From: Caldisericia bacterium
Lineage (GTDB): Bacteria; Caldisericota; Caldisericia; JAAYUI01
NCBI GenBank assembly: GCA_963674785.1
Contig: OY771555.1
Coordinates: 1,224,511 to 1,288,510, forward strand
Reading direction: 5' to 3'
Length of the DNA: 64,000 nucleotides
Position 1 is the first letter of the stretch. Every line of letters begins with the position of its first letter. A program made the position numbers and the translations under genes. Below, piece after piece: positions 41,740 to 43,785 of the stretch. A model generated the notes under the pieces. The model saw nothing but the letters and a program-made list of their open reading frames with translations. It was not told the origin of the DNA and ran no database searches.

Positions 41740-42323
41740 TTAATCACATAATCTTTCGCGATTTTGTAAGAGTCATCGAACACGTCTGACACATGCGGCT
41801 TGAGTTCGATGACTTTATTTTTTAGTTTTTCAAATTCGATTGAATTGGTTTCGGAAGTGTATTTAAAACCATCTATTTCATTTGCCAAATAAACTATAGT
41901 TGAAATACATTCTAGTTCTTTTCCGGATGCTCTTGCTAATTCATTTGCATTTTTATCAAGTACAGTGTTTTCAAGACCAAAAAGTTCTTCTGAGCTAGGA
42001 AAATCCCTTTCAGTCTCTAAATCTATATTCACAGTGTATTTCCAAGGAGAGTATTCTCCTATTGGTTCCTCTTCAGATAAGTAGGAGGTCTCATCAGACA
42101 AATAGGTAACATTTTTTGCAAGGGTTTTTGAAAAAACCCCATAGTTATAAAAATCAAAATCAAAATTGAATCCAGGTTTTGATTCTGGATTGTGTTTAAT
42201 AGATAGTTGTTTTATTAAGTATACCATTTTTTGAAGGTGGATTCTTCCATATATTGTACCACTGTTTATTGTGTGAAGCATTTTAAGAATCCTTACCAGA
42301 TCATTTATTGGCATTATCGCCAT
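41736..42323 (-). CDS. Small helical protein with a possible Panacea/DUF4065 (SocA-like antitoxin) signature, coupled to the HD dNTPase gene
   Basis: 'GRIHLQKMVYLIKQL...FDFYNYGVFSKTL' loosely matches the Panacea signature 'kLqKLlYl...(F/W)xyGPv'. Start overlaps the stop of the upstream gene by 23 nt. Confidence 0.4.
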   Translation of the reverse strand: MAIMPINDLVRILKMLHTINSGTIYGRIHLQKMVYLIKQLSIKHNPESKPGFNFDFDFYNYGVFSKTLAKNVTYLSDETSYLSEEEPIGEYSPWKYTVNIDLETERDFPSSEELFGLENTVLDKNANELARASGKELECISTIVYLANEIDGFKYTSETNSIEFEKLKNKVIELKPHVSDVFDDSYKIAKDYVIN

Positions 42324-43785
42324 TACTGTCCTCCGTTGAAGTCATTTCTTCTATTTTATCTCTATCTTCTTTTGAGACATAGTACTTTGTCTCAGGTTTT
42401 ACTCCAGTAAGTTTTCTTGCTATCTCCGAAAACTCTGAAATATCTTGAATTTCATCTGATTTATCAAAATTGGGGTCAAACACCAAGATCAGCTCTTTTA
42501 CTTTTTTCATCAATTCAAATTTTTTTTCGTCTTCTTTTAGAGCGCACCCGTACTTAATCAATGTCTTTACTTCATTGTATGATTCCTTATTGAATTTATA
42601 AAGATCTTTCTCTTCGGGGGTGTCTGTAAGAGGTTTGAAACGCGAGAATACTTTTTTAATTTGATTCTCATTGAGATTTTCAAAGGATATCTGTTTTAGT
42701 AGATCTCGGCTCAAGAATTGATCTGCTTCATCAATCAAGTCTGCAGAACCTTCAATTTTAGAAATAACACTCGAATCGCTTTGATTTAGAAACCAATTTA
42801 GGTCAAAATCCTCATCCTCTTTTTTGATTAACTCAGAATATTTATTCGAATTGTTAGTAGGTTTAAATTCAGGAATTTTCTTTATTATTGATTCATAAAG
42901 AACTTCTACGCTCCTTGTTGTTTTGTGGTATGCTATGTTTTTGTAGTGAAAAACTCTTGATAAAAGGAACTGTTCAATTGTCGGTATGCACTTCTTTTCA
43001 TATACTATTCTAAGCCGTTCTTCTGGTTTGAGCCCGAATATGCTTAACATAGGTACTGATTTAACCAGCATAGACCTAAACATAAAGTCAATATCCACAT
43101 ATACAGGTGTTCCACAAAAGTATGTATCTCTGAGGAGATAATCTAGTCTATCGCAATCTAGTTGAGATTTTATTAATGATGATATTATGTATAATTTTGA
43201 TACTTTGCCATTTTTCTTTGGTTCCTTTGATAGAATCTTGCTATCAAATGGAGTTACTCCTGTGATTAACTCGGAAATGTCATCTTTGATTGTGATGGGG
43301 TATTCTTTGGATTTAACTCCATCGTCTAAGATTTTTGAAATAGCAGTTTTTTCATTGATCACCTTTGTGGAAGTGTCTTCATGATCAAATCCAGGGCAGA
43401 TTTTGCTAAATGTATGGGAAAAGGGTCCATGACCAATATCATGAAGAAGGCCTGCACATGACATGATATCAATGATTTGTTCCTCATCTTTGTACTGTTT
43501 GTTTTTATCTTGCTCTTTGCTAATAAAGTCGCTTAATTTAATTTGACCTTTCTCGAACAGCTTTCTGACAGCTTTTGAGACTAACCATGCTACCCCTATG
43601 CTGTGAGAAAATCTAGTATGTGTTGCCCCTGGATATGTAAAATCCGAAAATCCTAATTGTTTAATTCTTCTTAATCTCTGGAATTCCTTTGTATCAATTA
43701 GCTTCTTTACAAGACTATCTTTGGGGAAAGTGATCATTCCATGAATTGGGTCTCTAATAGTTAAATCTGAATTATTCTTGCTCAC
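42301..43785 (-). CDS. SAMHD1-like HD-domain dNTP triphosphohydrolase
   Basis: '[60 protein letters not shown]' and '[15 protein letters not shown]' closely parallel the SAMHD1/dGTPase HD signature (H..HD..H.....D metal/nucleotide site). Confidence 0.85.
   Translation of the reverse strand: [494 protein letters not shown]

Follow-up and report, generated by a model that had tools for sequence, protein, structure and literature searches.

The characterized deoxynucleoside triphosphate (dNTP) triphosphohydrolases SAMHD1, EF1143 and TT1383 are regulated allosterically by nucleotides, and in the literature on EF1143-type enzymes we found no dedicated protein partner described. The anti-phage dGTPases (PADLOC dGTPase, NF041026) are also HD-superfamily dNTP hydrolases that act by dNTP depletion, but they belong to a different family (Dgt type) and are single-gene systems in defense islands. 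These defensive dGTPases were reported not to be directly alignable to SAMHD1, and it was suggested that EF1143-like dNTPases might also act in defense (Tal et al.). Here we analyze a gene pair in a 64,000-nucleotide (nt) stretch of the genome of a Caldisericia bacterium (assembly GCA_963674785.1, contig OY771555.1, positions 1,224,511 to 1,288,510), hereafter the window, in which the gene for a 494-amino-acid (aa) HD protein of the SAMHD1/EF1143 kind is followed by an overlapping gene for a 195-aa protein. The original prediction, made from the letters of the stretch, had read the two genes as an inserted accessory module in which a Panacea-like protein is coupled to a SAMHD1-like dNTPase for defense or as a toxin-antitoxin system.

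The C-terminal domain of the antitoxin DarG neutralizes its toxin by direct binding, that is, by stoichiometric blocking. DarG of M. tuberculosis DarTG (PDB 7YK3) also has a macrodomain, and its partner is the ADP-ribosyltransferase DarT (DUF4433), whereas the small protein in the window, which we assign to the YwgA family, stands alone without a macrodomain beside an HD dNTPase, so the pair is not a DarTG system. DUF4065 proteins have been described as homologous to the C-terminal inhibitor domain of DarG (2026 paper, PMC13621843). In a survey of two-gene PanAT systems, where PanA was defined by a Pfam cut-off, Dataset S1 contains a predicted toxin cluster, pT33/T34, annotated 'HD domain-containing protein', given the CDD assignment YdhJ and paired with DUF4065 (Kurata et al., 2022; PMC8832971). 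The T34 entries, from Ammonifex, Desulfofundulus and Caldicellulosiruptor, have the toxin-then-antitoxin order with spacings of -4, 0 and -17 nt, and are marked 'notest' (PMC8832971).

The ywfO-ywgA type operon of B. subtilis matches the window pair in its two families, their order and their tight linkage. Judging by the gene names, ywfO and ywgA are adjacent in B. subtilis, and the corresponding Sporosarcina gene order (pta, lipoate ligase, HD of 429 aa, YwgA of 168 aa, tautomerase, YwhD, PBP, DUF1934, argS) presumably represents the B. subtilis ywf/ywg/ywh/ywi region, with ywfO-ywgA as the archetype. Compared with their Bacillales counterparts, the window YwgA and HD proteins are ~28% and ~30% identical, respectively, and both are longer (195 and 494 aa). 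A search of the literature on YwgA and YwfO found no function for YwgA. Cluster T34 and the window pair are alike in that each is a conserved two-gene operon of a COG1078 HD protein (YdhJ is the CDD name for COG1078) and a small DUF4065-like protein. The pairing of an HD protein with a Panacea-like protein is thus already catalogued as a prediction.

The HD protein

The HD gene occupies positions 42301-43785 on the minus strand, with a GTG start and a TGA stop at 42303-42301, and the YwgA-family gene occupies 41736-42323 on the same strand, with an ATG start; both coding regions, of 494 and 195 aa, were taken from a six-frame list of open reading frames (ORFs) and lie where the original prediction had placed them. 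The 494-aa protein is predicted to be a full-length SAMHD1/EF1143-type HD dNTP triphosphohydrolase of the COG1078/YwfO type. It matches the Pfam HD family above the cut-off, as had been anticipated (31.9 bits versus 22, E = 1.8e-7). The HD_assoc_2 family (PF19276), which most of its homologs carry, is sub-threshold (16.5 bits versus 23.1); these homologs number in the thousands and mostly have an HD plus HD_assoc_2 architecture, and the nearest named one is from Caldisericia.

In a phmmer search, the best match among PDB sequences was the E. faecalis dNTPase EF1143 (2o6i; E = 2.4e-35, residues 9-375), followed by several bacterial HD proteins and by mouse and human SAMHD1 (E = 1e-24 to 1e-21). 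The protein does contain the motifs that had suggested a SAMHD1-like core, and they line up with the catalytic core of dNTPases whose structures are solved: H61, H115-D116, H119, H124, H135 and D210/D212/D215 are all conserved, and, in an alignment of 34 homologs, H56/R58 and R219-D220 are invariant along with the catalytic His and Asp columns. Thus the window protein shares with SAMHD1, EF1143 and TT1383 both homology over its full length and an intact catalytic HD core and, judged by this homology and the intact catalytic residues, is apparently an active dNTPase. The characterized enzymes are regulated by nucleotides, whereas this one has a conserved partner gene.

The region C-terminal to the HD domain had been described as lacking any recognizable motif. 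The alignment to EF1143 extends through it to residue 375, and, because the AlphaFold2 (AF2) model is a single confident globule to about residue 486 (predicted local distance difference test score, pLDDT, of 86; predicted template modeling score of 0.90), the C-terminal region is predicted to be the remainder of the EF1143-like fold.

The kinship to anti-phage dGTPases did not hold up. The HD protein fell far below the NCBIfam cut-offs (25.3 versus 400 bits for NF041026 and 28.1 versus 383 bits for NF003701), and the PADLOC dGTPase model gave 31.5 bits over residues 28-125 only, so that matches to anti-phage dGTPase models as a group cover only ~100 N-terminal residues at 25-31 bits versus ~400. 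These scores argue that the HD protein is not a Dgt-type anti-phage dGTPase. We also looked for residues that separate HD proteins with a partner from those without one; the candidates (S203, I104 and P268 in the window protein) probably reflect clade structure and were left uninterpreted.

The YwgA-family protein

The sequence of the 195-aa protein points to membership in the YwgA family, as a stand-alone member of the DarG C-terminal domain/Panacea-like superfamily. A word-indexed search returned four relatives, one of them named 'YwgA' by JGI, and a profile built from five sequences retrieved 1668 YwgA representatives of ~160-200 aa at E <= 1e-3 among 1.84 billion; the best 150 of these 1668 were all 129-211 aa long. 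The family profile matches proteins that carry the name in JGI (P0004, P0275, P0281 and P0283, 'uncharacterized protein YwgA') or UniRef (P0292 from Sporosarcina, 'YwgA family protein') with E values of 1e-33 to 1e-45. Precomputed annotation shows no Pfam domains on these named YwgA proteins.

Homology to the part of DarG that binds DarT is indicated most decisively by the PADLOC DarG hidden Markov model (HMM), whose C-terminal domain (model positions 168-297 of 329) matches the window protein at E = 1.3e-5 and also matches 139 of 147 YwgA-family members (best 2e-13). Among PDB sequences, the top match of the YwgA profile was 7yk3_B (E = 0.022), over the motif 'LQKLxYL...F..YGPYS'. In the AF2 model (pLDDT 96.2), a winged helix at the N terminus leads into a C-terminal helical bundle, and a Foldseek search with this model agreed with the DarG link (E = 9.3e-4), the fold being that of the DarG C-terminal domain. 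The fourth-ranked BFVD hit was a phage 'Antitoxin SocA-like Panacea domain-containing protein' (E = 0.064, template modeling score of 0.58 by target length). The proposed kinship of the small protein to antitoxin domains was well founded, and the useful new point, as we see it, is this robust connection of YwgA to the C-terminal domain of DarG.

The label 'Panacea-like' was right in direction, in that the stretch on which it was based ('LQKMVYL...FYNYGVF') is the most conserved of the family and aligns to DarG, but the protein itself falls short of the Pfam family. SocA_Panacea (PF13274) scored 15.6 bits versus a cut-off of 25.7 (E = 0.031, model positions 1-106 of 113), so that the Pfam check which succeeded for the HD protein failed for its partner. 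Weak Panacea matches at E <= 0.01 were found for 4 of 147 family members (best E = 6.8e-4) and for none of 10 further members. By this measure, the window protein would not count as a Pfam-defined Panacea protein. In this respect, it and most of the YwgA family differ from the PanAT antitoxins, and since most YwgA proteins are below the Pfam threshold, they were invisible to the survey of Kurata et al., which therefore missed the real extent of the pairing.

Some family members gave weak matches to the Pfam winged-helix families HTH_45, DUF4364 and HTH_27. The window protein has an isoelectric point (pI) of 4.9, and pI values in the family range from 4.6 to 10.5, with nearly half below 6, a spread that speaks against a DNA-mimic or DNA-binding surface common to all members; compared with the DarG C-terminal domain, mimicry of single-stranded DNA is thus not a given. 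PHROGs contained no match for YwgA. As a separate observation, 119 of the 147 family proteins match the N-terminal ~70 residues of PDC-M19A, a candidate-defense protein in PADLOC, with the window protein aligned to model positions 8-72 of 294; we found no literature on PDC-M19.

Linkage and co-evolution of the two genes

The 3´ end of the HD gene overlaps the start of the YwgA ORF by 23 nt (42301-42323, minus strand). A Shine-Dalgarno sequence for the YwgA ORF, GGAGGA, can be read straight from the sequence at 42329-42334 on the minus strand, 5 nt upstream of the ATG and within the last codons of the HD gene. The overlap together with this ribosome-binding site inside the HD 3´ end has the anatomy expected of translational coupling.

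The two families are found together far beyond chance. The closest HD homologs, in Caldisericia and elsewhere, are each followed by a gene for a protein of 186-197 aa that aligns with YwgA, and each of three distant YwgA homologs was immediately preceded by an HD gene. A search of GTDB species genomes for YwgA loci, made with an alignment of 25 sequences, identified 20 loci in Zixibacteria, Phycisphaerae, Pirellulales, Latescibacteria, Moorellaceae, Fermentithermobacillus, several Alphaproteobacteria and one Nitrosocosmicus metagenome-assembled genome (MAG). By tblastn and HMM search, 18 of the 20 have a same-strand HD gene directly upstream, and the remaining two start <70 nt from a contig end, hence the pair is conserved in all 18 testable loci, which answers in the affirmative whether the two genes co-occur as neighbors across genomes. 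The pair also recurs in six distinct metagenome contexts from different phyla, and the linkage spans at least six bacterial phyla, the Caldisericia and Bacillales loci included. Spacing is mostly -26 to +3 nt, with typical values of -4, -17, -26 and +2 nt. HD-YwgA thus also has the layout set for PanAT systems, in which the two genes are conserved side by side in >=2 species and are separated by <=100 nt.

Viewed from the HD side, the association is much rarer. We fetched 80 metagenomic loci with the HD alignment, 50 of which have >=600 nt on both sides of the gene, and found an adjacent YwgA gene in 8 of these 50 (~16%), downstream in five and upstream in three, as expected for an accessory subunit. 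The HD proteins with a partner form clades: the nearest informative neighbor also bears a partner in 28 of 32 cases. In one HD clade the order is inverted, with YwgA upstream on the same strand (L036, L048, L082 and L095), and the pairing therefore survives rearrangement. Pairwise distances of the HD and YwgA proteins are correlated (Pearson 0.82), and in a Mantel test 0 of 2000 permutations reached this value. These distances indicate that the two proteins co-evolve. The partnership is fixed to one partner family, unlike the promiscuous partnerships of PanAT systems.

Several loci have an altered pair. We considered whether a 587-aa protein that matches both HMMs (P0079, L115 4001-5999) might be a natural HD-YwgA fusion. 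It consists of an HD domain, a garbled stretch and the N-terminal half of YwgA, the rest of which is in an overlapping 95-aa ORF, and the break sits at the usual 4-nt overlap; most likely it reflects a frameshift or assembly error and was not taken as Rosetta-stone evidence. Upstream of an intact YwgA, the HD gene is split into ORFs of 281 and 110 aa, both matching the profile, in two assemblies of independent origin, one of them an NCBI MAG and the other a Logan run (L002 4106-5437 and L003 730-2061); the split could be due to a frameshift, a pseudogene or recoding. In the complete genome of Candidatus Fermentithermobacillus carboniphilus (L031 3372-4516), the HD core is shortened to ~190 aa, corresponding to profile positions 3-168, and YwgA is intact. 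On a 3-kb contig of a Candidatus Nitrosocosmicus MAG (L032 1-981), an HD C-terminus adjoins YwgA, and the pair would occur in Archaea as well if the thaumarchaeal binning of this contig is right.

Genomic context and inheritance

The neighbors of the pair in the window are genes for a ClC channel, an Hsp20, a cysteine desulfurase-like protein and a sigma-like regulator. The ClC/CBS channel gene (43868-45529) still adjoins the HD gene in both closest relatives (L001 and L012), with 69% and 77% identity. On the other side, a gene for a 161-aa protein (41254-41739, plus strand) is convergent with YwgA, with a 4-nt overlap of the 3´ ends; in L001, the only relative checked for it, it is kept in the same position with 56% identity, and it matches no credible Pfam, NCBIfam or PADLOC family. 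The HD and YwgA proteins are ~40-47% identical to their orthologs in L001 and L012, and the pair thus diverges markedly faster than its flanks. Elsewhere, the pair is flanked by housekeeping genes such as folE, ychF, purE, an H+-PPase gene, metH and gidAB.

No YwgA relatives were found in 2.9 million viral contigs, and none were found in a phage collection or in PLSDB plasmids by single-sequence tblastn, a search of limited sensitivity. Given this distribution, the conserved flanks and the housekeeping contexts, the idea of an inserted accessory module had to be abandoned: the pair is an ancient, vertically inherited chromosomal operon of the B. subtilis ywfO-ywgA kind and not a mobile defense island. 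We found neither the patchy, mobile distribution that is generic to type II toxin-antitoxin systems nor, for the HD gene, the location among defense genes or mobile elements that characterizes anti-phage dGTPases, and the distribution looks more like that of a fixed regulatory pair than of a mobile one. Among the loci whose flanks we inspected, the sole defense-like neighborhood is that of L115, where Eco57I-like and PLD-like genes lie upstream. This neighborhood and the faster divergence of the pair keep a conflict-related role alive.

Other genes in the window also have unusual features. The plus-strand gene at 40465-41232 encodes a 255-aa protein with an RNA polymerase alpha C-terminal-like domain (residues 12-66) and a sigma-70 region 4 (residues 127-165), an unusual combination, and has weak matches to the MzaA defense-associated sigma factor. 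On the minus strand, 46780-48354 and 48799-52776 encode two large putative beta-propeller proteins that share near-identical C-terminal domains of ~90 aa ('...VSWDGTERKVICTLGDKTIELWIGKPTARIDGVETQIDP...FLAESLGCEVEW'), a similarity that suggests recent duplication or gene conversion. At the related locus L010, a PQQ / Cu_amine_oxidN1 protein is encoded.

Expression signals

A consensus scan detected a promoter-like TTGACT-16-TATAAT sequence on the minus strand at 43792-43819, with 11 of 12 matches to the sigma-70 type consensus, in a region where the total of such sites is not above the shuffled expectation. This near-consensus site stops 7 nt short of the GTG start codon for the HD protein, and no Shine-Dalgarno sequence was found between the two. 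Because the promoter-like site abuts the HD start, the HD transcript may lack a leader or carry only a very short one. The same scan found no minus-strand site of comparable strength between the HD and YwgA genes. The G+C content is 0.32-0.34 across the pair versus 0.35-0.43 in the flanks, slightly lower but not anomalous.

Discussion

The explanation we favor, with belief and doubt about evenly balanced, is that the pair is one operon for a two-component dNTP-degrading enzyme in which YwgA serves as a regulatory subunit that binds its partner directly and probably inhibits it. The SAMHD1/EF1143-type protein would hydrolyze dNTPs, and YwgA, made in coupled amounts by way of the overlapping reading frame, would bind it as a regulatory subunit, most probably holding it in check. 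Release, turnover or titration of YwgA, triggered by growth arrest or replication stress or conceivably by phage infection, would then unleash dNTP hydrolysis, and this gating would make dNTP depletion conditional. Because both its fold and its sequence place YwgA with the C-terminal domain of DarG, a direct-binding neutralizer, we infer a protein-binding regulator. The data establish what the two proteins are, that their genes are coupled and that the pair is conserved and co-evolves, whereas physical binding, the inhibitory direction and the trigger are inferred.

Several points weigh against this explanation. Whether YwgA acts as inhibitor, activator or proteolytic adaptor is read purely from the analogy to DarG and Panacea, the N-terminal winged helix leaves room for DNA binding or a role in transcription, and the spread of pI values across the family makes it unlikely that all members mimic DNA on their surface as the DarG C-terminal domain does. 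Moreover, ~84% of the related HD enzymes (42 of the 50 sampled loci) have no YwgA, which therefore is not needed for basic activity.

The same features could describe a classical toxin-antitoxin or abortive-infection module, with a toxic HD protein that lethally depletes dNTPs and that is countered by YwgA, as a labile type II antitoxin, until a phage infection sets it free. YwgA is homologous to a bona fide antitoxin domain, the overlapping toxin-then-antitoxin layout satisfies the rules by which PanAT systems were predicted, and a COG1078 HD protein with DUF4065 is listed there as predicted cluster T34 (Kurata et al., 2022, Dataset S1). The possible defense role raised for EF1143-like dNTPases (Tal et al.), the faster divergence of HD and YwgA (~40-47% identity versus 69-77% for the flanking ClC gene) and the location of L115 beside Eco57I-like and PLD-like genes also fit such a module. 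Nevertheless, we consider it unlikely in view of the vertical inheritance, conserved synteny and housekeeping neighbors of the pair, its absence from the 2.9 million viral contigs and the phage and plasmid records at the sensitivity used, and the scores of the HD protein against anti-phage dGTPase models (25 versus 400 bits for NCBIfam and an N-terminal segment only for PADLOC). Since most HD homologs exist without a partner, the enzyme also is not intrinsically lethal. An indispensable antitoxin would be expected to be essential, and ywgA is not known to be so in B. subtilis.

YwgA might instead act as a transcription factor through its winged helix, regulating its own operon or other nucleotide-metabolism genes without touching the enzyme. 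Many type II antitoxins also repress their own operons, and the weak HTH_45, DUF4364 and HTH_27 matches in some family members agree with such a role; it seems quite unlikely, however, for an acidic protein (pI 4.9) from a family in which nearly half of the members are below pI 6, and strict adjacency, translational coupling and co-evolution are more typical of stoichiometric partners. Very unlikely, in our judgment, is a role as a SocA-like proteolytic adaptor that hands the dNTPase to ClpXP or Lon, so that the level of the enzyme is set by degradation and not by inhibition. This model draws on the weak similarity of the YwgA family to Panacea, given that the Panacea-domain protein SocA acts as a proteolytic adaptor for SocB (Kurata et al., PMC8832971). 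That similarity is sub-threshold, however, and no protease gene was found beside the pair in the loci examined. The closest relative, the DarG C-terminal domain, works by stoichiometric blocking.

Returning to the two-component enzyme, a bolder form, which we put forward only tentatively and with more doubt than belief, is that the SAMHD1-type dNTPases of bacteria have their missing protein regulator in YwgA, a stand-alone DarG/Panacea-domain homolog fixed in the core genomes of many phyla that would gate dNTP depletion by direct binding and release the enzyme on growth arrest or phage attack. If this is true, the 'toxin-antitoxin' architecture here would be an ancient, domesticated metabolic switch. 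Descent in the reverse direction is also possible, with the DarG and Panacea antitoxin domains derived from such a housekeeping regulator.

The window pair is not a novel inserted defense system but a divergent example of the HD-YwgA operon, which is widespread, was fixed in ancient times and was already visible as ywfO-ywgA and T34. As ~1700 representative YwgA proteins are largely invisible to the Pfam Panacea model, the HD plus DUF4065 class is much larger and older than one supplementary table showed. The control of bacterial SAMHD1-like dNTPases is poorly understood, EF1143 and TT1383 having been described as nucleotide-regulated only, and a conserved, co-evolving partner that shares ancestry with a toxin-binding antitoxin domain provides a concrete and easily tested hypothesis for control of dNTP pools at the protein level. 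With this pair, the boundary between toxin-antitoxin modules and housekeeping pairs of enzyme and regulator becomes less sharp.

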